A stretch of DNA of 64,000 bases, from assembly GCF_017348835.2 (NCBI RefSeq), contig NZ_CP071375.1. One strand, given 5' to 3'. Both the position numbers and the translations under genes were made by a program. This stretch comes from Escherichia coli (GTDB lineage: Bacteria > Pseudomonadota > Gammaproteobacteria > Enterobacterales > Enterobacteriaceae). The notes under the pieces were generated by a model. That model was not told the origin of the DNA and did not search any database. It was given only the letters and a program-made list of their open reading frames with translations. The stretch's first letter is position 1. Each line of letters starts with the position of its first letter. Below, piece by piece: positions 1 to 50,094 of the stretch.

Positions 1-1047
1 CAGATCACCACCATTGGCCGCAGAGTTGATATCATCAATAGTAAAAGGGCCGGGTGGAACAGTAGTCTGATAAACATCGTATCCGTTCTGTTTTACACTC
101 ACTTGTGCGGTGCCACGGGCAATACCATGAATCACCGGAGCGAAACCATGTTGGCTATCGGGCAACATCGCTTCTGTTGAATTTATTTTGAGGCCACGAA
201 AGTTCACACTATCAAAAATATCGCCATCGGTATAACTATCACCTACCGTTAACCGTGAGCGTAAGGGAATAATGTCACGTTCAGCCGACGTATTGATATG
301 CTGCCATTTATTGCTGTCTGATGAATTGCTACTCCCACTGTTATAACTCCACGTTGAGTTATCGCGCAGTCGCCAACTACCAATGTTGATGCCACTCTGT
401 AAATTCAAATATGCATAGTTGGATTTTCCTGCATTATGGTTACTACGATTATTAATAGAATTACCATTAAAACTATAGTTTAGAAGCCCAGCATTTATTC
501 CTTCTTCCCACAGATCAGGAGAAACATAGCCGCGAGCCATTCTGCCAACATAAATTTGCGGAACGGAGAGTGACAAATGTTGCTGACCAACATCAAACTC
601 AGTTGATGCGTCAGCTAAACGATCCTGAAGTGGTGTGCATGCGCTGTTGTCCGGCACATGTTTTTCTGCTGAATGTTCGTTATTGTCTAATAACGCAGAT
701 TTTTTTATGCCAAGACTGACAAGAAGATCTGTACTTAGGCATGGGATGAGATCTGCGTTATTATCATCTGCAATAAAAGTAATATCCCGACTAGTCATAA
801 ATTCGTCGTTCAAATAAATGTCGACCCGATATGTACCAGGTGGTGCCTCGCGTCCCTTAGTAAAGGCGGATAAATCGACAGATTCAGCAAGATCATTGCT
901 TAAAAACCGTGGATTAAAATAATACTCTGCGTCAACGGGAAATACCGCAGTTGCTAAGCTAAGGGCAATGGTAAGCCGTACAAAGCGAGGCAGTAGTAAC
1001 ACCTGATGCATACGATATGCCTTAAATGCGGCACGAAAGGCTGTCAT
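1..1047 (-). CDS. Fimbrial outer-membrane usher, N-terminal ~349 codons; gene continues beyond window start
   Basis: Minus-strand frame from ATG at 1045-1047 is open to position 1 with no stop (absent from ORF track because it runs off the edge). Sits downstream of pilin and chaperone genes in classic chaperone-usher order. Confidence 0.7.
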   Translation of the reverse strand, partial: MTAFRAAFKAYRMHQVLLLPRFVRLTIALSLATAVFPVDAEYYFNPRFLSNDLAESVDLSAFTKGREAPPGTYRVDIYLNDEFMTSRDITFIADDNNADLIPCLSTDLLVSLGIKKSALLDNNEHSAEKHVPDNSACTPLQDRLADASTEFDVGQQHLSLSVPQIYVGRMARGYVSPDLWEEGINAGLLNYSFNGNSINNRSNHNAGKSNYAYLNLQSGINIGSWRLRDNSTWSYNSGSSNSSDSNKWQHINTSAERDIIPLRSRLTVGDSYTDGDIFDSVNFRGLKINSTEAMLPDSQHGFAPVIHGIARGTAQVSVKQNGYDVYQTTVPPGPFTIDDINSAANGGDL

Positions 1048-1088
1048 TATTAATTCCGATTGAGTTTATTATTAATTAGGTCACTGGC

Positions 1089-1808
1089 TTACTGCATGGT
1101 TGCCTTAATACGCGGAGTTAATGCACCGTAATCATTGATCGTCTGAAAACTGATATCCCCGGTTGCAGCATGCGGGATATCCACCGATACTTCACCTTTT
1201 GGCGGCACCATGGTGTTTGGGAGATTGCTATTTCCTGCTTTCATATTTGTTACGGTAATGAAGTAGGGCGTTGGATTAATAAGGGTGAGTTTGCTACCGC
1301 TGCGACGAAACCGAAGCATTGCAGGCGCTTCTTCAGGTGCCATTGCCAGGTTCGTGGGGCGATAAAACATTTTTATGCGGCTAATAATTGCCAGCTGTAA
1401 TGTATTCTCATTCTTCTGGTCTTTTTCCATAGCAGGAATAGCTTTAACATTCACCCAGAACAGGCTTTCACGGTCGCCTGGTAACTGATGATTAGTGGCA
1501 TTGATTATCCGCAGCGTATTCTCTTTTTTACCTTGCATGGAAAAAAGCGGTGGGGTAATGACAAACTGGGTGTCTTTTTGGTCACCTGCATTTTCTATCC
1601 ATGACTGAATGAGATAGACACTGGCAGGATCATTATTCGTGACAGGCAATAAAACCTGTTTCTGGTTTGCCGGATAAATTACCCGCGTCGCACCCAGTGC
1701 GACAGCTGCGTTGGCAACGGTGCTATGGCAAGCAAAGAGCAATAAAAGTAACACTGTCGCCATAAAGGAAATAGAGTAGGGGGTACGCGTAGTTTGCATC
1801 TGATGCAT
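1089..1808 (-). CDS. Periplasmic fimbrial chaperone (FimC/PapD-like)
   Basis: 239-aa ORF with N-terminal signal peptide (hydrophobic run ending in ANA) and chaperone-like sequence; lies between pilin and usher. Confidence 0.8.
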   Translation of the reverse strand: MHQMQTTRTPYSISFMATVLLLLLFACHSTVANAAVALGATRVIYPANQKQVLLPVTNNDPASVYLIQSWIENAGDQKDTQFVITPPLFSMQGKKENTLRIINATNHQLPGDRESLFWVNVKAIPAMEKDQKNENTLQLAIISRIKMFYRPTNLAMAPEEAPAMLRFRRSGSKLTLINPTPYFITVTNMKAGNSNLPNTMVPPKGEVSVDIPHAATGDISFQTINDYGALTPRIKATMQ

Positions 1809-2159
1809 TCTCCATGTGTTAAGAGGATAAGCGGGAAAACCGTTACATCAGACAATCGATAAATGTTGCTAATACATTGGCGAGTCGCCGGGTTTCCAGA
1901 CTTAATGCGTTTGTAATAAATGTTGGTTCTCTTTTAATAGGAAAACCTTGCTACAAAGTAAATATTTTAAATAACAGTAAGTTTAACTACTGTTGTTTAT
2001 TGATAGTTTAGATATTATGTGATTTTTCATAGCGCTCCAAATACAAACCACTCCTCATTAATAATGAGATTCACATTGGTGAATTGCTCGGGTGTGCGTA
2101 GCCATGCCACACACACCCTGTTTCAATTTCAGATGACGTATAGCCACCTTAAGATTGAA

Positions 2160-2723
2160 TTATAGATATTGAACCTTGAAGGTCGCATCTGCGTTTGCAG
2201 TACCAGCTACGGACTGCCCGAGTGCAATATAACGAGCCTGGAACGGCAGTATATTCGTGCCATCAATCAAGTCAGTTTTAGCGCTAAAAGTGGCACCATC
2301 AAGTATTAATACCTCACCCGTACGGTCCAAAATTTGGATACCGACATTTTGGGCAGAGCCTGCCGCTGAACTCTGCAGCGCTAACGTATCGTCATTACTG
2401 GTGACAGTAGTACCCAGGAATGCAACAGCTGCATTACTGGAAACATTGGTATCACAATCATTCAGCTTGATATTGAAGCCAACGGCGGAGCTGAGGTCAC
2501 CCGCTTTAGCCAGGCGAGAAGAACGAACCTGACCCAGCTCAACCGTTTGGTTCATTGATTCTGAATCAATCGCACAAGCGGCATTTACCACTTCACCTTT
2601 AAAATGAATAACACCGCCATTAACAGTGGTCGTTACTGATTCATCACCCTCGCCTGCGCTTACCGCAGCAGACGACATCGCCAACACAGAAACGACAATC
2701 ATACCAACATGTTTGAGTTTCAT
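2160..2723 (-). CDS. Major fimbrial subunit (FimA-like pilin)
   Basis: ORF with signal peptide [23 protein letters not shown], Cys pair and C-terminal FKVQYL pilin motif; GGAG ribosome-binding site upstream of ATG at 2723. Confidence 0.8.
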
Positions 2724-3156
2724 AATTCTCCAAAATTTATATTTAAGTAGCTGAATAAAGAGAGTTAACAATTAAGTCATTCTGTTATTGCTTATAAAAC
2801 AAGAATCATTCTTGATTGGTTGTTGCCCTGAGAATATAGTTTCCAGGATTATTACATTTCACGAAGAACGAGAATATCTTTAAATCACAAGGACACCTAA
2901 TCACAACAAGTTTATTGCTGCACTTGTTGAAGAGAGTATTTGCAAAAATATTTTATGTCGCTAAATAACATAACGATTTCATTATGCATGTTATTTATAA
3001 ACCGTGACTAAACAGAATATTATTGCGAACAAGGGAAGTGTCAGGAAAGGTCAAGGGCTACTAATGGTTTATATGGCTATAAATCATTAGCTATAGTTAA
3101 TGTTTGCCTGGTGTAACTAACACCGAATTGCTCTAAACAGATAAGTGCAGGGTTTA

Positions 3157-3411
3157 TTAAAGCTGACCGACAGACTTTCTTAACCTGGTAATATCTCTCT
3201 TAGGTGACTCTCCAAACATCTGCAAATATTCCCGGCGGAAATGGGATAAGCTTTCGTAACCGACAGCATAGGCTGCTGTGGTGACATCGTAATGTTCATT
3301 CAGCATCGTTCGCCTGACTTCATTGAGACGTAGCCATTTCTGATACCGGAGTGGACTCATTCCCGCAAGCTGCCTGAAGTGTTGATGGAAAGAGGGCGTG
3401 CTCATTTGCAC
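3157..3411 (-). pseudogene. yneL: AraC-family regulator fragment (C-terminal HTH only), yneL-like
   Basis: 84-aa ORF carries only the second AraC helix-turn-helix; the overlapping 3320..3577 ORF in another frame does not look like HTH1, so the gene appears truncated or frameshifted. Confidence 0.45.
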
Positions 3412-4117
3412 GCGGTTTGCCAGCTTGAGTCTTCAACGCTGGGAAGATGCGGCAAACGGCAAATCGGCATACCAGCCAGCCTATATCCGTCATGCACAGG
3501 CCAATTATGAAAGAGGAGAGGCTTAAGTTCTGGAACCCTGAACGAATAACGAGCACCGGAAAATCACTTCGTATCACTCAGATGCTATTTAACATAATAT
3601 ACATTATGCGCACCAATATAAACCAAGGGAGAATCTAGTCGTTGGCGGTCATGATTGTCCTGCTCATTAACAACGACCAAACCCCATATCTTACTCTTAC
3701 TTAATACCGTATTCCCGGCTTAACCGACCGTGCAACCTCAACACATTGGTTTCAACTGCCGTCACCACGTTCTCTGGAAAATCTGTCGGTAATGAAGTCT
3801 TCACGTTATCCAGTGCTGCCGGAATCATTCTGGCAAAGTCACTCAGGATTTCATGCATCTGCACTTCCGGGAATCTCAGCACCTTTGCTGTCGCCAAAAA
3901 ATGTCGCGGATAAATTTTATCGATTGCCGTTTTTTTGCCTTTGGATGCGTTAAGCCCCATTGCCAGTTTGAGATCGCTGATGTGTATTCCCGCGCCACCC
4001 AATACCGGAAATGCTGAAATGATGTCGTAAAATGGCGTGAGTCGATAACTGCCGCCAGCCTGAATAAATACGGAGAAGTTTTTTGCATGGCCATCCGTTG
4101 CGCCAATCAGTTCGCTG

Positions 4118-4547
4118 CATACCGGTCCGACCCCGTACTGCTCACGCAGCTTATCCAGCAGTGGCATTATTTTTTCCAGAGGCGGTCGAACTCCGCCTTC
4201 GCAAAATAAGCGGAAGCCTGGCGAAGGATATCGTTACTGCGGCGCAGTTCACGATTTTCACGTTCCAGCTCTTTCAGACGCTGACGTTCAGCGGTGGTGA
4301 GTCCACCATCACCACTCCCGGTATCCCGCTCATGCTGGCGAACCCAGACACGCAGAGTCTCCGGCGTACAGCCAATCTTTGGGGCAATGGAACAAATTGC
4401 CGCCCACTGTGAGTCATATTCATCCTGACTTTCCAGAACCATACGAATCGCCCGCTGACGGACTTCGGGGGAAAAACGAGTATTTTTAGTCATCCTGTTT
4501 ACCTCTTTCTCAGGGAGTTTAGTCTCCAGGATTTCCGGGGCGGTTCA
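4118..4547 (-). mobile_element. Truncated IS3-family element (IS629/IS1203-like): terminal repeat, complete orfA, first ~20 codons of orfB
   Basis: Bases 4118..4547 match the full copy at 56514..57823 (same end sequence, ending ggggcggttca); identity stops at 4118 inside orfB. Confidence 0.8.
4167..4493 (-). CDS. IS629-like transposase OrfA
   Basis: 108-aa ORF ([19 protein letters not shown]...), identical to the orfA at 57443..57769. Confidence 0.85.
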
Positions 4548-4841
4548 CAACGCTGTCTCGCCCTATTTCTGACAATAAATCAAACGGTTGTCTGGATTTG
4601 GCATGATAACGTTTAACGATCCGGTCACGTACAATCGGGCTATCGGGTAACAAGTTATCGAAGAAGTTAAATACGGCATCAGAGGTGATATTCCCCCTCT
4701 GCAATGGCAGCGAAAGTGACAACGGTCTGGCATAACGGCTGGCTAACCACTCCGGTGCATACTTAAAGGTGTGCGCGCCGTTGGCTAACTTCGTTAACTC
4801 GCCTACCCGCTGGTTGTTCATCCAAGTGACTAGTTTGGGCA

Positions 4842-5108
4842 TTACCACTCCAGATCTTGCTGTTCTGTTGATTCTGGCGAGGCATTTTTCGTGTCGCATA
4901 GCGTCATTGAGAGTTCAAGCGACTGTAAAATCTTAAAAAATGTCGTGAGCGAGGTATTGTCAGGGTTGTTTTCGAAATTGGAAATCGTCGCCTGCTTAAT
5001 GCCGATTTTTTTCGCCAGCTCGCTCTGCGTCCAGCCATTTTGCTGGCGAACCAGTTTCATTGCATTCGCTAATTGCGTTGGGCTATAGATCTTCTGAAAG
5101 CTCATCAT
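4842..5108 (-). CDS. hipB: HipB antitoxin / transcriptional repressor
   Basis: ORF matches HipB (MMSFQKIYSPTQLANAMKLVRQQNGWTQSELAKKIG...); stop overlaps the hipA start by 1 nt as in the known operon. Confidence 0.9.
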   Translation of the reverse strand: MMSFQKIYSPTQLANAMKLVRQQNGWTQSELAKKIGIKQATISNFENNPDNTSLTTFFKILQSLELSMTLCDTKNASPESTEQQDLEW

Positions 5109-5318: not shown

Positions 5319-8300
5319 TTACCAGCTATATTTCACTCCCAGCATGCCCTGAGTATCGCTATAGCCTTTATCACCTAGTTGCACACCGACATTCCCCCAC
5401 AGGCTAAGGTTGTTATTTACTTTCGCCTCAACCCCGGTACGTACTTCACCGAGATTACGCGCACCATCACGGCTTACGGTTTGACCATTCATCTTCACGG
5501 CGTAGACTTCGCTATTGTTGATCCAGTTCGCTTCAATGTAAGGCTGGAACTCACGCTGTTTACCATCGTCACGCTGGTGATGGCTATTCAGGTAGGTTTT
5601 CACCCCAAGTCGCGTTTGCACGTTTCCGTCGCCTTCCGTTTCAATGCGCGTTCCGTCTTTCCGGGTATGGTCAGAATCTTTCACACCCATCCAGGTGATT
5701 TGTACCTGTGGCTGGACGTACCAGGTATTCAGCGTCCCTTCGCTGCCACTAAATGTTCCCGCTTCAAAGGTATACCCACCCTCAACAGAGGCCGTCACAC
5801 CGCGAGAATCATAGTCGTCAGCAGAACGGTTATCGGAACTGACACTGTTATCAAACCAGTTATACAGCACCCAACTGTCAACATAAGCGCCGGTCTTATT
5901 CGCATCGTTCTGATACCAGGTCGCGTACAGCCCAGCGCTGTAACCGCTGATGCGCCCATCCGATTTATAACCCACACGATTACTCTGAGTATTACTGTGC
6001 TGATTGGCGTAGCCTGCCATCACGCCAAGATGCCAGCGATCCTGCGCGTTGCTACTCCACTGCGCCAAATCGCCGCCTAGCTGCAATACATAGCGGTTAG
6101 CCTGAGCATTTAGCTGGCCGTCACCGGTCCTGAAACGTTCGTGTCCCCCGACATGACGCATCCACATACTGCTTGCCGAACCCTGAGAAAGCCGTGAATC
6201 TGTATACTGCGGCTCACCCAGACGGTCGTGTAAGCGATGGCTAAACAGCGAGTTGGCTGCGGCAATGTTGCTGATATAGCTTCCGGCCTCCGGGCGATAA
6301 ACTGATGGGCCTTCCGGATCCACAACAGGGGGATTATTGATGGGATCGGGTGTATCCGCTGGCGTTACGCCGTCCCATTTACTGGTCAGATACCAGTTTT
6401 TCTCGTCATTCCCCTTCCCTTTAGCCAGCGTGTAGACGTAAGCCCCAGCTTCGACAGTTCCGGTGGTCAGCGCGAAGTTACCTGCAGAATTACCGCCAAC
6501 CTCAATGAGTTCAATACCGTTGACCGTTTGCGCACCGACGCCGCCAATGTTATCAACCCGAACGCGAGTGTTCCCTTGGGTATCGCCTTTCACGTTCATC
6601 TTATCGGTGGGTGAATTATCGCCGCCCAGCGTCGCGTTGAACGTTATCAGGCCATTGTTTCCGGTATAGTTGCCGTTAACGGTCAGTACATTCCCCGGTT
6701 TTCCTCCTTCACTGTTCATTTGAACCGTGCCGCCATTCTTCAGGTTGCCGCCGATTGTGGTTTTAGCGACACGCAGTGTCCCCCCAGACATAACGTTCAC
6801 ATCACCTGCAGTGGTGACATTTCCCGACATCACACCGCTGTTATGGATATTAATGTGTTGACTTACCGTATTAATGGCAGAGTCGGAACCGAAAGCAATT
6901 TCCCCCCCCCCACGATATCCGTCGTACCCTGATACGCCGAGGAATCGTTGTTAAGAGTCAGGATCCCGGTACCCAGTTTTGTCAAATCACCGCTACCGCT
7001 GATACTGTGCGTCATCGCCCAGCTACGCTCAGTGGAGATGGTGAGCAGGCCATTATTGATAACGGAAGCATCACCCAGGTTTTTCTGCTCGTTGACGCTG
7101 AGCGCGCTGCCTGTATCAATGTTGAATTGCCCCACAAAGCGGCTATTATCGCCATCCAGCTCTACATCTGTCCTGGCGGTTGCGCTCACGATACCCTTCC
7201 CGCTTATGCTATTACGCAGTTCGCCAGTCACGTTTTTTAGCGTTAACAGACCGTCATTGGCAATATTTCCTCTGCCTAACCCCTGCGTATTATCGAGGCT
7301 GACTTCCGCATTTGGGCTAACGCTGGTTAACGCATTGTAGCGTGCATTAAGCCCCTCAATAGCCAGCGTTCCCCCTGTAACATTCAGGTTTCCGCCACCT
7401 GTCAGTTCACCCTGACTGATCCCACCTTTGGACACCGTGGGAACCGTCCTGAACGCCCACCAATGAATATTCTTTGTTATTAATCAGTCCATTATTGGAA
7501 ATATTGACTTTGCCATTACCGAAATATCCATTATAGAGTCTGCGTACCGTGATGACAGAGTCTTGATCCTGCACATTCAGGGTTCCGACACCGGTGGCAT
7601 TGCCACCGATAATCGTATTTTCAGCCGTAATCAGTCCACCCTCGCGAATAGTCGCCTCCCCAGTTCCTTGATTACCAATTTGAAATTCAATTGAGGAATC
7701 GTTATTTTTCATTAGCCACTCGCCACCCTTTTCAACGACAACCTGGCCATTACTGCCCGCCTGATAGCCTAAAATGGCGACGATTGAACTCGTGACGTAA
7801 CCCTTATCCGTAATATTTAATGAGCCTGTACCGTAACTCCCTATTTCGAATAATTCGGTCGTCAAAACCGAGTCCTCTCCCTCAACATTAACCGTCCCGA
7901 CGCCTGCAGCTTGAGTACCTAATCTTAAATAGCCTCCATCGACGTGACCCTTCTGTTTAATATTCAGCGTCCCCGTTCCGGATTGACCCACATTTAAAGG
8001 CCTTGCATTATTTCCGCTATCATACAATCGCCAGGTGCCACCCAAAACATTAACGGTACCCTCCGAATCCTCATTACCGCCAATGACGCTGGTAGTAATA
8101 GTGGTTAAGGAGGCATTACCGCCAGCCAAAATATTAAGCACTCCAGTGCCATACCAGCCAACCAGGTAGGCATCATAAGCAACATCAGTATCAATATTGG
8201 TAATCTGACCATTATCAACTTCCAGACTCGCACCAGACGCTGAACCGCTTAGTGCCAGCAAAACACCCAGCGTCAATCTACTGAATTTCGTTGTCAGTCC

Positions 8301-8414
8301 AGAGGATTTACGCAAATTAACCGTCGATGTTTTACCTGCCCTGCGAGTTAATTCCGAGCAGGCCTGAAATACCTGTAGAGTGCAATTCCATATCACGCGA
8401 TAGATTCTATTCAT
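5319..8414 (-). pseudogene. yneO: AIDA/Ag43-type autotransporter adhesin, frameshifted into three ORFs (yneO-like)
   Basis: ORF 7407..8414 has an extended autotransporter signal peptide (MNRIYRVIWN...), ORF 6863..7435 a Gly/Thr-rich passenger, ORF 5319..6833 a beta-barrel ending in a W terminal residue; all three are in different frames. Confidence 0.8.
6902..6911. repeat. Homopolymeric tract, 10 x C on + strand (G10 on coding strand) at the frame break inside the autotransporter
   Basis: tcccccccccca read directly; both flanking reading frames are open across the tract. Confidence 0.9.
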
Positions 8415-26578: not shown

Positions 26579-27693
26579 ATGGTTACGCCAGTAAGCATCA
26601 GCAATTACATATCTCTTCCTGAAGATTTTCCCGTACGTAATATTGCACCTCAGGTAAAAGAAGTTTTAAAGGATTTTATTGATGCACTTAGTACAATAAT
26701 ATGTGATGAAGAGTGGCGCACGTCTTTAAACATCAACTCAGCCACAAAAAAGATATTTAATAACCTTGACAACTTATCATATATTCAGAGGACTTCTTTT
26801 CGGGGTAACGACACGCTATACAATGAAAAGGTTCAGTTTAAACTCACTTATCCCGCCAGGAATGGAAGACACAAAGAAAATATTGAATTTCAGGTAGTAA
26901 TAAATTTAAGCCCTATTTATTTAGATAATTTCCGCCATGATGGAGAAATTAATATTTTTTGCGCTCCCAACCCAAAGCCTGTCACTATGGGGCGCGTATT
27001 TCAGACCGGCGTCGAGCGTGTGCTATTTCTGTTTCTGAATGATTTTATTGAACAATTTCCAATGATCAACCTTGGTGTTCCCATCAAAAGAGCGCATACA
27101 CCACATATTGAACCCCTGCCTCCGGATCACCATACCGCTGCAGATTACTTACGCCAGTTTGATTTGCTTGTCCTGAATTTTATCTCTCGCGGTAATTTTG
27201 TCATACTCCCCCGATTATGGAATAACTCTGAGGTTCACAGATGGTTCGTCAATAAAGATCCTAACTTGATCACCGCCATTCTCGACATAGCGGACAGCGA
27301 ATTAAAAGAGGATTTATTGCAAAGCCTGATGGATTCATTAGGTTCTAACAAACATGTACTACCCGAAGTCTGCATCTGCTTTTTATCCCTTTTAGCAGAA
27401 CAAGATTTTCCACATTTTCAGGACTTTTTTTATTTTTCGCCAATATGTTATTGCACTATCACCAATTTATGAATCCCAATGAAAGTGATTTGAATGACGT
27501 GTTAATGCCAGCATCATTAAGTGATGATAAAATTATCAAACATATGGCGCGCAAGACCCTCAAACTTTTTGTAAAAAATGAAACACCGCCAAAAGTTACT
27601 CATGAAGACCTGGTGAAAAACAGGCCTCGCTCCCCTGTCAGACCACCTATACCCGCAACCTCCAAAACGCCAGACATTCCTGATCGTCATTAA
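26579..27693 (+). pseudogene. yneK: yneK-like gene split by a frameshift (ORFs 26579..27472 and 27445..27693)
   Basis: Two consecutive ORFs in different frames (297 + 82 aa); both frames are open across a T-rich stretch at 27381-27436 that includes a T7 run. Confidence 0.55.
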
Positions 27694-36404: not shown

Positions 36405-36797
36405 TTATTTCTGCAAATGAGTGACCCGAACGACGGCCGGCGCGCTTTTCTTATCGAGACTGCCGCTAATGTTGATCATCTGGTCCGGCTGAACTTCTCG
36501 TCCATCAAAGACGGCCGCAGGAATCACGACATTAATTTCACCGCTCTTATCGCGAAAAACGTAACGGTCCTCTCCTTTGTGAGAAATCAAATTACCGCGT
36601 AGTGAAACCGAAGCGCCATCGTGCATGGTTTTTGCGAAATCAACGGTCATTTTTTTTGCATCATCGGTTCCGCGATAGCCATCTTCTATTGCATGAGGCG
36701 GCGGTGGCGCTGCATCCTGTTTTAAACCGCCCTGGTCATCTGCCAACGCATAAGGCATGACAAGAAAACTTGCTAATACAATGGCCTGAAATTTCAT
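36405..36797 (-). CDS. ydeI: Periplasmic OB-fold (BOF/YgiW family) stress protein
   Basis: 130-aa ORF with signal peptide. Confidence 0.85.
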
Positions 36798-44588: not shown

Positions 44589-45192
44589 AATTCACAGGTG
44601 TTTTTTCCCATCCTGTGGTTTCCTTGGCGTTTTCTAGGTTTTTTCAGATAGTTGCATTTTTTAAAAAGCATCCTAAGTTCGATCTCAGTGTCTATCTGGG
44701 GCCTATTTCTGTCCCATATATGCCCCAAAAAAAACTCCCCAACAGATAAGTAGTTTTTTCATGGATTTATGCGTAAAATCAAGAACGGCTGGAAATCATT
44801 CAATACTCACACTATCGAAAAATTTACCAGCCAACCGCAGCACGTTCTTGCATAAGGCGTGTCTGCGGTTTTTCAACTATTCAGATACATCACTCCCATC
44901 ACATTCATTCCTCCGCATCAAAGGCATATAGGCTATATCACCTTGATATTTTTATTTTTCAGATAAAAACTGTTATCTATGTATACTTTTAAACCCAATC
45001 CGTGTAGAGTCTCTGCATAAGATAGTTTGCAGTTGCCGCTTCAGCTTGCGCCATAAATCGCCTGATTTTTGCTGCCACCTGTTAGCATTCCTGTATACCT
45101 GAAACGACAATGTTTATCTACGAACTTTAAGAACACCCAAGATAAAAATTGTCAACTATATCATATATAACACATTACTAATTCGAGGCTAT

Positions 45193-45306
45193 ATGAACAG
45201 CATACTGATAATCACATCTCTCCTTATCATATTCAGCATTTTTAGTCATGCCCTAATAAAATTAGGGATTGGCATATCCAATAACCCAGACAAAACCGAT
45301 GTATAA
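45193..45306 (+). CDS. Hypothetical small hydrophobic protein (37 aa)
   Basis: [37 protein letters not shown]; one predicted TM helix; weak ribosome-binding site. Confidence 0.3.
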
Positions 45307-45374
45307 GTCAACATATCCTGAATCAGACATACAATATCGCAATGAAAATCAATAATATTTTAAGGAATATCTTC

Positions 45375-45608
45375 ATGAAATCAAAAGACACCCTAAAGTG
45401 GTTCCCTGCGCAGCTTCCTGAAGTAAGAATTATCCTAGGGGATGCTGTAGTGGAAGTAGCAAAACAGGGAAGACCTATCAATACCAGAACATTGCTTGAT
45501 TACATTGAAGGAAACATAAAGAAAAAATCATGGCTGGATAACAAAGAATTATTACAAACAGCGATATCAGTTCTTAAAGACAACCAAAATTTAAATGGTA
45601 AAATGTAA
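45375..45608 (+). CDS. ydfK: Prophage cold-shock-associated small protein
   Basis: ORF starting MKSKDTLKWFPAQLPEVRIILGD after AAGGAA. Confidence 0.75.
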   Translation: MKSKDTLKWFPAQLPEVRIILGDAVVEVAKQGRPINTRTLLDYIEGNIKKKSWLDNKELLQTAISVLKDNQNLNGKM

Positions 45609-45924
45609 TATAATAAACTTACTTTTTTATCATTTTTCCACTTTAACAACATTTTGCTCCACTTTTCCACGACCAAACAACTTGAAATCTGGTTAAAATA
45701 ACACGCAACACTATTCTTCTTCCTTGAGTCCGCCCGGAACTCGAAAAACAAACCGAGTTAAAGCCATTTTTCACAAAATCGATTTTGGGTCTCACCAAAA
45801 TTACGGGGTTGCATACGCATTCGTTTATTTTCGAACGTGTACATACAAATATGCACAAAAATAATCAAAATTATTTTCTGAGATGCATTATGATATGAAC
45901 ACCAATTTCGTATAGAGTCTCACT

Positions 45925-46515
45925 ATGTCTCGAATTTTTGCTTACTGTCGGATATCAACGCTGGATCAGACCACCGAAAATCAACGCCGGGAAATCGAAA
46001 GTGCAGGTTTTAAAATCAAACCTCAGCAAATAATCGAAGAACACATTAGCGGCTCAGCAGCAACCAGTGAGCGTCCTGGTTTTAACCGGTTGCTTGCTCG
46101 CCTGAAATGTGGTGATCAATTGATTGTGACAAAACTGGATCGCCTTGGTTGTAATGCAATGGATATCAGGAAAACAGTGGAACAACTGACCGAAACAGGT
46201 ATCAGAGTGCATTGCTTAGCATTGGGGGGCATTGACCTGACCAGTCCAACAGGAAAAATGACGATGCAAGTAATTTCAGCAGTCGCTGAATTTGAACGAG
46301 ACCTTTTACTTGAACGCACTCATTCCGGGATAGTAAGAGCCCGGGGCGCAGGGAAACGTTTTGGTCGACCACCTGTGTTAAATGAAGAACAGAAACAGGT
46401 GGTATTCGAACGAATTAAGTCAGGTGTAAGTATAAGTGCCATTGCCCGGGAATTCAAAACCTCGCGGCAAACCATTTTAAGAGCCAAAGCAAAACTTCAG
46501 ACACCTGACATATAA
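45925..46515 (+). CDS. pinQ: Serine recombinase (DNA invertase/resolvase family)
   Basis: 196-aa ORF with N-terminal catalytic motif YCRISTLDQ and C-terminal HTH. Confidence 0.8.
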
Positions 46516-46612
46516 AAAATAATCTCGGTGTGAGATGCTTTACGTCTTCCAAGCCACCTTCCTTGCCGTAAATGGAAAGATACATCTAATTATAGAATTT
46601 ATATGTTTTACC

Positions 46613-47188
46613 CTACGGCAGTGCTGGCCATTCAATATCCTGTGCAGTTGACGTATCAACACGGTTCAGCAATACCCGATACTTTTTCCATGCTTCCAGC
46701 AACGAGATTTCTTCCTCCGTTGCAATTTCCAGATCTGCAGCATCCTGAAGCGGCGCAATATGCTCACTGGCTACCTGCATCAGGCTGTTTTTTGTTTCTT
46801 CCGCCTCCCGGATCCGGAACAGTTTTTCTGCTTCCGTATCCTTCACCCAGGCTGTGCCGTTCCACTTCTGATATTCCCCTCCCGGCGATAACCAGGTAAC
46901 ATTTTCCGGTAACGGACCGAGTTCAGAAATAAATAACGCGTCGCCGGAAGCCACGTCATAAACCGTTTTACCCCGATGATCTTCAACGAGATGCCACGAT
47001 GCCTCATCACTGTTGAAAACAGCCACGAAGCCTGCCGGAATATCTGGCGGTGCAATATCGATACTGTTTGCTGGCAGACCTGTATGAGGCGGAATATATG
47101 CGTCACCTTCACCAATAAATTCATTAGTTCCGGCCAGCAGATTATAAATTTTTATGGTCCGTGGTTGTTCACTCATTCTGAATGCCAT
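46613..47188 (-). CDS. tfaQ: Tail fibre assembly protein
   Basis: 191-aa Tfa-like ORF directly downstream of the tail-fibre C-terminus. Confidence 0.8.
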
Positions 47189-48741
47189 TATGCAAGCCTC
47201 ACAATATAGTTAAATGCGATGTTTTTGACGGTGTTTTCCGCGTTACCAGCAGCGTTAACGGTGATGGTATGTCCATGTGAACCAATCGCAACGGAGTGCG
47301 TATGAGCACCAATACCGACAGTATGTGCGTGTGCACCTGCGCTTGCAGCAGTACCCGATACAGAGTGCGTATGAGCGCCTGCAGAAGAAGTGTTAACACT
47401 GTATTTAGAGTAATCAGGTGATCCACTTCCCGGAGCACCACTGGAACCACCTGAAACAAATGTCATCGAATGGGTATGTGCACCGGCTGAAGCAGCCGTA
47501 CCGCTAACACTATGGGTATGCGCACCAGTGTTATTCGTGGATTTAGTGCCGTAATCAAACGACGATGTGGTTTTCGTCCCCAAATCCGTACTGGATACGC
47601 TGGCGCTGTGGGTGTGTGATTTAATGCCGTCCTGTTCCTGAGACAATACGGCTCGATCACTGGCGGGCTTGCCCTTAATCGTCCAGCCACGCATATCCCC
47701 TTTCGTTTTCATCCAGTCTTTGACAATCTGCACCCAGGTGGTGAACGGGCTGTACGCTGTCCAGATGTGAAAGGTCACACTGTCAGGTGGCTCAATCTCT
47801 TCACCGGATGACGAAAACCAGAGAATGCCATCACGGGTCCAGATCCCGGTCTTTTCGCAGATATAACGGGCATCAGTAAAGTCCAGCTCCTGCTGGCGGA
47901 TGACGCAGGCATTATGCTCGCAGAGATAAAACACGCTGGAGGGGTCATCCGGCGTCCATTTGAGGCCAAACGGCGTCTCTTTGTCGCCAAATTTAAGATA
48001 CTGCTCCTCCCCGCAGTGCGGGCAGGCAACATGAAAACGCATAAAATGCGGGGATTCACTGGCTGCACGCTCAATCTGGCAGGTGCCTCTCACTTTGGGC
48101 GTGGAGCCACGGATGGACTTTGGCCAGACCGAGCCTTCAATACGTTTGTCGCCAAGGAACGTCGGAGAGCCTTCCTGTTCAATATCCTCATCAAAGGCAG
48201 CAAGTTCATCATAACCCGCCACATCCACCGACTTTTCACGGTAGTTTTTTGCCGCTTTACCGCCCAGGCACCAGAAGCCACGACCATTGGAAAAACGCTT
48301 CATAGTGAGCGTGTTATCCCGGTGCTTTTTGCCATACCACGGAGCCAGCGCCAGCAGCGACGGAATATCGCGGATGGTCGGCTCAACGTGGGTTTTCATA
48401 AAGTTCTCGGCATCACCATCCGTCGGCAACCAGATAAGTGTGTTGCGCTGCTTATGCTCTATAAAGTAGACATAAACACCCAGCAGCATTTTGGAATAAC
48501 CGACACGGGCAGACTTCACCACATTCACCTCACGGATGTAGTCGCTGCCCATCGCATTCATGATGGCCCGCTGAAAGGGCAGTGTTTCCCAGCGCCCTTC
48601 CTGGTATGCGGATTCTTTCGGGAGATAGTAATTAGCATCCGCCCATTCAACGGCGGTCTGTGGCTCCGGCCTGAACAGTGAGCGAAGCCCGGCGCGGACA
48701 AAATGCCGCAGCCTGTTAACCTGACTGTTCGATATATTCAC
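47188..48741 (-). pseudogene. stfQ: In-frame fusion: lambda gpA-like large terminase N-terminal ~350 aa (47694..48741) joined to a side tail fibre C-terminus (47188..47693)
   Basis: ORF starts [23 protein letters not shown]... (lambda A) to ...[10 protein letters not shown], then switches to His-rich tail-fibre sequence ([20 protein letters not shown]...). Confidence 0.8.
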
Positions 48742-49261
48742 TCAGCAACCCCGGTATCAGTTCATCCAGCGCGGCTGCTTTGTTCATGGCTTTGATGATA
48801 TCCCGTTTCAGGAAATCAACATGTCGGTTTTCCAGTTCCGGAAAACGCCGCTGCACCGACAGGGGGATCCCGTCGAGAATACTGGCAATTTCACCTGCGA
48901 TCCGCGACAGCACGAAAGTACAGAATGCGGTTTCCACCACTTCAGCGGAGTCTCTGGCATTTTTCAGTTCCTGTGCGTCGGCCTGCGCACGCGTAAGTCG
49001 ATGGCGTTCGTACTCAATAGTCCCTGGCTGGAGATCTGTCTCGCTGGCCTGCCGCAGTTCTTCAACTTCCCGGCGCAGCTTTTCGTTCTCAATTTCAGCA
49101 TCCCTTTCGGCATACCATCTTATAACGGCGGCAGAGTCATAAAGCACCTCATTACCCTTGCCACCGCCTCGCAGAACGGGCATTCCCTGTTCCTGCCAGT
49201 TCTGAATGGTACGGATACTCGCACCGAAAATGTCAGCCAGCTGCTTTTTGTTGACTTCCAT
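48716..49261 (-). CDS. nohA: Terminase small subunit (lambda Nu1 homologue)
   Basis: 181-aa [45 protein letters not shown]...; overlaps the A start as in lambda. Confidence 0.9.
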
Positions 49262-49450
49262 TGTTCATTCCACGGACAAAAACAGAGAAAGGAAACGACA
49301 GAGGCCAAAAAGCCCGTTTTCAGCACCTGTCGTTTCCTTTCTTTTCAGAGGGTATTTTAAATAAAAACATTAAGTTATGACGAAGAAGAACGGAAACGCC
49401 TTAAACCGGAAAATTTTCATAAATAGCGAAAACCCGCGAGGTCGCCGCCC
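49262..49450 (-). other. Lambda-type cos site: cosN 12-nt cohesive end at 49439..49450, cosB region between cosN and nohA
   Basis: Minus strand reads CCGACAGGTTACG-GGGCGGCGACCT-CGCGGGTTTTCGCTATTTATGAAAATTTTCCGGTTTAAGG, the lambda end junction, then a lambda-like region up to the Nu1 start. Confidence 0.85.
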
Positions 49451-49649
49451 CGTAACCTGTCGGATCACCGGAAAGGACCCGTAAAGTGATAATGATTATC
49501 ATCTACATATCACAACGTGCGTGGAGGCCATCAAACCACGTCAAATAATCAATTATGACGCAGGTATCGTATTAATTGATCTGCATCAACTTAACGTAAA
49601 AACAACTTCAGACAATACAAATCAGCGACACTGAATACAGGGCAACCTC

Positions 49650-49844
49650 ATGTCAACGAAGAACAGAACCCGCAGAACAACAACCCGCAACATCCGCTTT
49701 CCTAACCAAATGATTGAACAAATTAACATCGCTCTTGATCAAAAAGGGTCCGGGAATTTCTCAGCCTGGGTCATTGAAGCCTGCCGCCGGAGACTAACGT
49801 CAGAAAAGAGAGCATATACATCAATCCAGAGTGATGATGGATGA
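49650..49844 (+). CDS. Small prophage protein, YlcI/YnfO-like
   Basis: 64-aa basic ORF immediately beyond cos. Confidence 0.5.
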   Translation: MSTKNRTRRTTTRNIRFPNQMIEQINIALDQKGSGNFSAWVIEACRRRLTSEKRAYTSIQSDDG

Positions 49845-50094
49845 ACATCCCGGTTTCTTTACCTTCCCTCCCTCCCCGCACAGAACTGGCGAGCGTGAGG
49901 GACCAATATGTGAGCCATAAATGCCTTATCTTCAGAAATGCAGTTGGTATCCGAACAGGACGATATTGTAAATTCACCTAAATACGAGGCATTGCTGTAG
50001 TTGAATTGCAGTACTGTATTAGCCTGACAGTGACAGAATACGATATTGACTCTGTCACTTGTGAAATGGTCAGAATGGTTAGCAGTTATGGTGA

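Follow-up and report, generated by a model that had tools for sequence, protein, structure and literature searches.

The homopolymer of ten G residues that breaks the frame of an autotransporter adhesin gene in the 64-kb stretch of Escherichia coli DNA analysed here (hereafter the window) is best explained as a slippage-prone tract, a mutational hotspot left behind in a dead gene, and not as an operating switch, a reading to which we give a probability of about 0.78. A sequence-only reading of the window had singled out this tract, at positions 6902–6911, and had seen in it the typical layout of slipped-strand phase variation. As a possibility at the level of the species, this proposal stands; for the genome under study it falls, since translation of the gene stops after 335 amino acids whatever the length of the tract.

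The gene is E. coli yneO (formerly ydeK/ydeU; b4696 in K-12 MG1655), which RefSeq assigns to the "ECSE_1600 family" of autotransporters. It covers positions 5319–8414 on the minus strand (ATG at 8414, stop codon at 5319–5321) and sits between lsrK and hipB, which is the orthologous position in the locus order lsrK-yneO-hipBA, with a DNA identity of 97–98% to the ECSE_1600 genes annotated at the same locus. Each module of a type Va (AIDA-I-type) autotransporter can be recognised, from the N-terminal signal peptide and the passenger repeats through the autochaperone/pertactin region to the C-terminal 12-strand barrel domain, with matches to TIGR04393 (repeats) and TIGR01414 (barrel) in NCBIfam and to AC_1, Pertactin and Autotransporter in Pfam. 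Instead of forming the single continuous ORF of a type Va autotransporter, these modules are split over three minus-strand ORFs in two frames, which tile the region from 8414 to 7407 (335 aa), from 7435 to 6863 (190 aa) and from 6833 to 5319 (504 aa). The N-terminal ORF (7407–8414) encodes an ESPR-type extended signal peptide, also called in the RefSeq annotation of the sister strain PE164, followed by T5SS passenger repeats, and it loses its frame at a deletion junction before stopping at 7407. The middle ORF holds, in its own frame, the retained distal segment of the passenger (6912–7428), which ends in the G tract. The minus-strand frame that follows the tract holds both the autochaperone (AC_1)/pertactin-like domain (6426–6746) and the autotransporter β-barrel domain (5388–6167; PF03797/TIGR01414).

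The same picture emerges from the NCBIfam model of the family, NF011422, which matches the three ORFs at profile positions 1–329, 1104–1280 and 1303–1806. These fragments score 711.6, 369.5 and 1169.5 bits, respectively, compared with 4177.7 bits for an intact allele (L004), and none of them provides the full-length match to the 1806-position profile, at a curated cut-off of 2335 bits, by which membership is defined. Judged by its sequence, the window copy is a deleted, frameshifted derivative of an ECSE_1600 family member and not a functional member. Family, domain and locus evidence agree in this respect with the initial identification of the gene as an autotransporter adhesin pseudogene. 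The family takes its name from a 1806-aa protein of SE11, a commensal strain; according to the paper that described it, MG1655, E24377A and Sakai carry truncated versions and phylogroup B2 strains lack the gene (PMC2608844). The intact ECSE_1600 of SE11 and the yneO pseudogene of K-12 are close points of comparison, being the same gene at the same locus with the same domain order and 97–98% DNA identity, but the MG1655 copy is broken at a second G run and has a G8 tract, whereas the window copy combines a G10 tract with a 2.3-kb deletion.

On the plus strand the tract reads as C10, and on the minus, coding strand its context is GATATCGT followed by GGGGGGGGGG (the G10 itself) and then by AAATTGC. 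It is the sole G/C run of at least eight nucleotides in the window; dinucleotide-preserving shuffles yield an expectation of 0.03 such runs, which were present in 2 of 100 shuffles. In intact alleles the tract is G8, read as GTG GGG GGG GAA (Val-Gly-Gly-Glu, residues ~1276–1279) about 55 codons before the autochaperone domain, and relative to these alleles the window tract has two additional nucleotides and is out of frame. The passenger (middle) frame enters the tract as QGTTDIVGGG and continues with KLLSVPTLPLIR to a stop codon. The barrel (downstream) frame includes GYRGGGEIAFGSDS and spans the tract as GGGEIAFGSDS. Its open stretch begins 14 codons before the tract, across which the two frames overlap.

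The G10 lies exactly at the frame break, and translation of each frame confirms that both are open across it, as had been noticed initially. The prediction that 8 or 11 G would join the passenger frame to the barrel frame was reproduced with simulated tract lengths. Indeed, with G8 or G11 the segment starting at 7435 is fused up to the stop at 5319 (704 or 705 aa), and with G6, G7, G9, G10 or G12 it ends after 186–190 aa. The tract therefore displays one hallmark of contingency loci, a simple repeat within coding sequence of which the length sets the reading frame (G8 and G11 in frame, the other lengths truncating).

The second frame break, placed near 7407–7435 and outside any repeat by the sequence-only reading, is real and proves to be a deletion junction and not a simple frameshift. 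Alignment to the intact allele L004 positions the junction at 7429–7431 on the minus strand, with an orphan C at 7430. A total of 2,328 nt is missing (nt 985–3312 of the intact gene, ~776 codons), and since the net change, with the orphan C, is −2327 nt, the deletion is out of frame; no notable microhomology is found at its ends. Translation from the ATG at 8414, which is the sole start that bears a signal peptide, yields no more than 335 aa for any tract of 6 to 12 G, in line with the initial remark that one slip alone could not restore the protein. As a consequence of this out-of-frame deletion, the tract cannot switch anything in this genome. A further hallmark of contingency loci, that a change in length turns a functional product on or off, is thus absent here and is seen, in silico, only in other strains. 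That the tract is a working phase-variation switch in this very genome is hardly conceivable: such a role would be suggested by its location exactly at a frame break and by the joining of the two downstream frames with 8 or 11 G, but the early stop caused by the deletion refutes it in silico, and the fused middle and barrel ORF would be without a signal peptide.

The deletion (−2327 nt) and the tract (+2 nt) add up to −2325 nt, a multiple of three, and the N-terminal and barrel ORFs share the same frame. Rescue of the frame by this sum is ruled out by the 518-nt middle segment, which is out of frame and leads to the stop at 7407. Recoding at the G10 through transcriptional or ribosomal slippage is irrelevant here, because translation already ends upstream.

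When the second break was compared across related genomes with a junction-spanning query, the same junction was found in PE164 only. This query also ruled out that the deletion is common to the 69 genomes that cover at least 80% of a 3.4-kb query; other genomes among those 69 bear different internal deletions. Several independent internal deletions have hit the passenger/barrel region in other lineages. Examples are the loss of 232 nt in O26/O111-like STEC (gene nt 4711–4942) and of 12 nt in O26; those of an O157:H7 sublineage, SA31-1, 98209 and KTa008 are larger.

PE164 is the nearest genome to the window and differs from it by six SNPs in 46 kb, the sole indel being the tract itself (G11 in PE164, G10 in the window). 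In the neighbourhood of yneO, at 3697–4493, an IS3-family element disrupts hipA in the window and in PE164 alike. The window is devoid of 1,488 bp that are present in PE164 beside this element (a piece of hipA and what remains of the IS), and the junction at ~4109, where GCGCCAATCA is joined to GTTCGCTGC, looks like an IS-adjacent deletion that tells the window strain from PE164. Further away, a gene with a diguanylate-cyclase domain (21225–22643, minus strand) is interrupted by a stop at codon 330, and the frame of yneK (26579–27693, plus strand) is shifted; as both lesions are common to PE164, the lineage has several other pseudogenes nearby. According to the annotation of the sister strain, the prophage remnant genes ydfK, pinQ, tfaQ, terminase and nohA are found at ~45000–50000.

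Tract length was compared across 5,426 complete E. coli genomes with 28-nt and 33-nt queries made of the conserved flanks around Gn, the counts being exact matches after removal of 81 partial hits that also scored 100%. The site is present in ~4,150 of these genomes, as G7 (~293 genomes), G8 (~2575), G9 (~356), G10 (~43), G11 (~6) or an interrupted, synonymous allele, GTG GGT GGT GAA (~582); G6 was also seen in an evenly spaced sample of genomes. G8 makes up 79% of the uninterrupted tracts, about 21% of which do not keep the frame. The comparison across relatives invited by the initial observation thus reveals a length that varies from G6 to G11, with in-frame G8 as the mode and G11 in the nearest relative. 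The interrupted allele, carried by ~14% of genomes, occurs with an intact gene and is naturally stabilised; the homopolymer is not required by the protein.

Length also changes between alleles that are otherwise identical or nearly so. No SNP separates MRSN346595 (G10) from 4/2-1 (G9), or SJ3 (G10) from 7_29_23A (G11), over 6.4 kb, and yet their tracts differ; MG1655 and MRSN346595 are distinguished by two SNPs, plus differences at two G runs. Length polymorphism between close strains, another hallmark of contingency loci, is thus found at this site (G6–G11). At the same time, lengths are coherent within lineages, G10 being shared by four MRSN isolates, five mouse isolates and ~12 related STEC isolates, and G9 by the O26 isolates, which argues against random miscalls.

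Long G/C homopolymers are error-prone on several sequencing platforms, and the G10 call in the window may be a sequencing or assembly artefact, the true length being G11 as in PE164, or another one. Besides this general proneness, an artefact would account for the tract being the sole indel relative to PE164 in 46 kb, and K-12 assemblies from the same stock are known here to differ by one G. We nevertheless consider it quite unlikely. None of the eight A8/T8 runs of the window differs from PE164 and the six SNPs are clean, which indicates separate genomes whose assemblies are well polished elsewhere, and G10 is called in 43 other genomes forming lineage-coherent groups. Moreover, the gene is dead with G10 as with G11, and the main conclusion is independent of the call. 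As a control, a T8 run in ydeI (36650–36657) was changed in 0 of 60 evenly sampled genomes versus 10 of 58 for the G tract (Fisher p = 5e-4); being an A/T run in a functional gene under purifying selection, this control bounds generic miscalling (<~5%) and not G-specific error.

K-12 assemblies disagree at the tract and at a second G run downstream of it. Both runs are G8 in the MG1655 reference and in GM4792 and G7 in DH5alpha, whereas ATCC MG1655 (CP009685) and ER1709 combine a first run of G7 with a second one of G8. This disagreement may reflect either instability in laboratory stocks or sequencing error. Systematic compression of G8 into G7 would fit DH5alpha, but it fails for ATCC MG1655 and ER1709, in which G8 is kept at the second tract. 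Against our preferred reading of a slippage hotspot, it may thus be objected that G10 rather than G11 in the window could be an assembly error, and that the disagreeing K-12 assemblies could result from technical error and not from biology.

The tract is not the only G run in this gene: runs of at least six G number five in the 5.4 kb of an intact copy, compared with three G/C runs of that size in the rest of the window (58 kb). The second run, G6 in the window (6780–6785, minus strand), lies 125 nt downstream of the tract. In K-12 MG1655 (allele L007), this second run, at nt 3955 of the gene, is changed from G6A to G8 (+1), and the tract itself is an in-frame G8; it is therefore the lesion in the second run, and not the tract, that makes yneO a pseudogene in K-12 and yields the 1325-aa YdeK fragment. 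In O55:H7 one G is lost from a G7 at nt 1314, and in 81EVA one G is gained at nt 4033. The other 1-nt frameshifts among the sampled genomes (O55:H7, MG1655 and 81EVA) are thus all located within G runs.

In lineages in which the gene is otherwise intact, the tract could be a true contingency locus, reversibly ON at G8 and G11 and OFF at G7, G9 and G10, with switching frequent enough to count within a population, while being irrelevant in the window lineage. Either in-frame length can accompany an intact gene, as G8 does in WCHEC035148 and G11 in PK8276, where an intact CDS of 1807 aa is annotated; PCN033 and ST2747 combine the interrupted allele with an intact gene. An ORF of 1806 aa is regained when the tract is set to G8 in MRSN346595 (G10), in 4/2-1 (G9) or in the assembly of DH5alpha (G7), which identifies the tract as the only lesion inactivating the gene in these three cases. 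The ~21% of uninterrupted tracts that are out of frame, the length changes between alleles without any SNP and a layout like that of the coding poly-G tracts of Bordetella bapC/tcfA point in the same direction. However, other observations make a true contingency locus possible but unlikely. In the O157:H7 lineage the gene has already been lost, and G8 is nevertheless unchanged in nearly all of the ~50 genomes listed; the modal tract thus does not behave as a fast switch. For high-frequency, reversible switching within a clonal population, a last hallmark of contingency loci, the indirect evidence points both ways, with this constancy on one side and the disagreeing assemblies of K-12 stocks on the other. 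Out-of-frame G10 (43 genomes) outnumbers in-frame G11 (6 genomes), and selection for ON lengths is thus not apparent. Many out-of-frame alleles bear extra lesions, which persist after resetting of the tract in D2, SJ3 and O26 RM10386, ~14% of genomes have the stable GGTGGT allele and phylogroup B2 is without the gene, a pattern that fits ordinary pseudogene decay. Finally, slippage rates at 8-nt runs are low in mismatch-repair-proficient E. coli, which we also count against a contingency locus.

Among the systems described so far, bapC and tcfA of Bordetella pertussis offer the closest parallel. There as here, a coding G/C homopolymer of ~8–11 nucleotides lies in a type V autotransporter gene and changes of one or two bases truncate the product; length differs between strains, and certain reference alleles have lost the frame but would regain it through a single slip (PMC1891110). 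They differ from the present case in that mixed lengths were shown there within single-colony cultures (PMC1891110), whereas the E. coli tract is known from assemblies. In addition, the modal G8 of E. coli seems fairly stable and the window gene is irreversibly dead.

In E. coli itself, the classical cases of adhesin phase variation are Ag43, controlled by Dam/OxyR methylation, and type 1 fimbriae, controlled by inversion of fimS. The outcome would be alike, in that a surface adhesin belonging to the AIDA-I-type autotransporters would be turned ON or OFF, but those mechanisms are epigenetic or recombinase-based, regulated and exerted at the promoter, whereas any switching here would result from replication slippage in coding sequence. 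No description of the tract was found in the literature on yneO/ydeK/ydeU/ECSE_1600/UpaI or on slipped-strand phase variation of E. coli autotransporters. In a study of long-term stationary phase, the mutations recorded in yneO were IS2 insertions and one substitution, with no tract changes.

The hotspot reading that we favour would involve slipped-strand mispairing during replication, which would add G residues to the tract or remove them; homopolymer instability through slippage rises with tract length. In intact alleles, lengths of 3n+2 (8 or 11) keep the protein whole. Any other length uncouples the passenger from the autochaperone and the barrel, and the protein is truncated 8–25 codons later, leaving no surface protein. 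In the window lineage, the 2,328-nt out-of-frame deletion destroyed the gene first or independently, and the tract, which is without phenotypic consequence here, would have drifted neutrally to 10 (11 in the sister strain PE164). Neutral drift in an irreversibly dead gene is most likely what the tract undergoes, as deduced from these two genomes. The anatomy of the gene, its frames, the deletion and a length polymorphism that spans the species and is coherent within lineages are read directly from the sequences; slippage as the mechanism, neutrality in this lineage and any rate of switching are what we infer. That E. coli cells can change such a tract is illustrated by the G10 of Bordetella tcfA, which expanded and contracted once cloned in E. 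coli (PMC1891110).

To conclude, the tract matters little for this genome, where it is a relic in a dead gene. Beyond this genome, many of the cases in which a widespread adhesin gene of 1806 aa is annotated as "frameshifted", a large share of the total, go back to a single short G run. The site also calls for practical caution in pseudogene calling and in cgMLST and SNP pipelines. Close relatives diverge at the tract before anywhere else in the locus, and alleles with 8 G and with 11 G both encode whole proteins. How the tract behaves in G8, G9, G10 and G11 strains is relevant to the question of whether phase variation by repeat slippage exists in E. coli. It is rather doubtful that yneO/ECSE_1600 would be a homopolymer-driven phase-variable adhesin, toggled at this tract in lineages with an intact gene, in which the G runs 125 and 200 nt downstream would be auxiliary and at least nine G residues would raise switching to the rates of contingency loci. 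If true, however, E. coli, whose phase variation is thought to depend on methylation and DNA inversion, would possess one of the rare switches based on a coding repeat.
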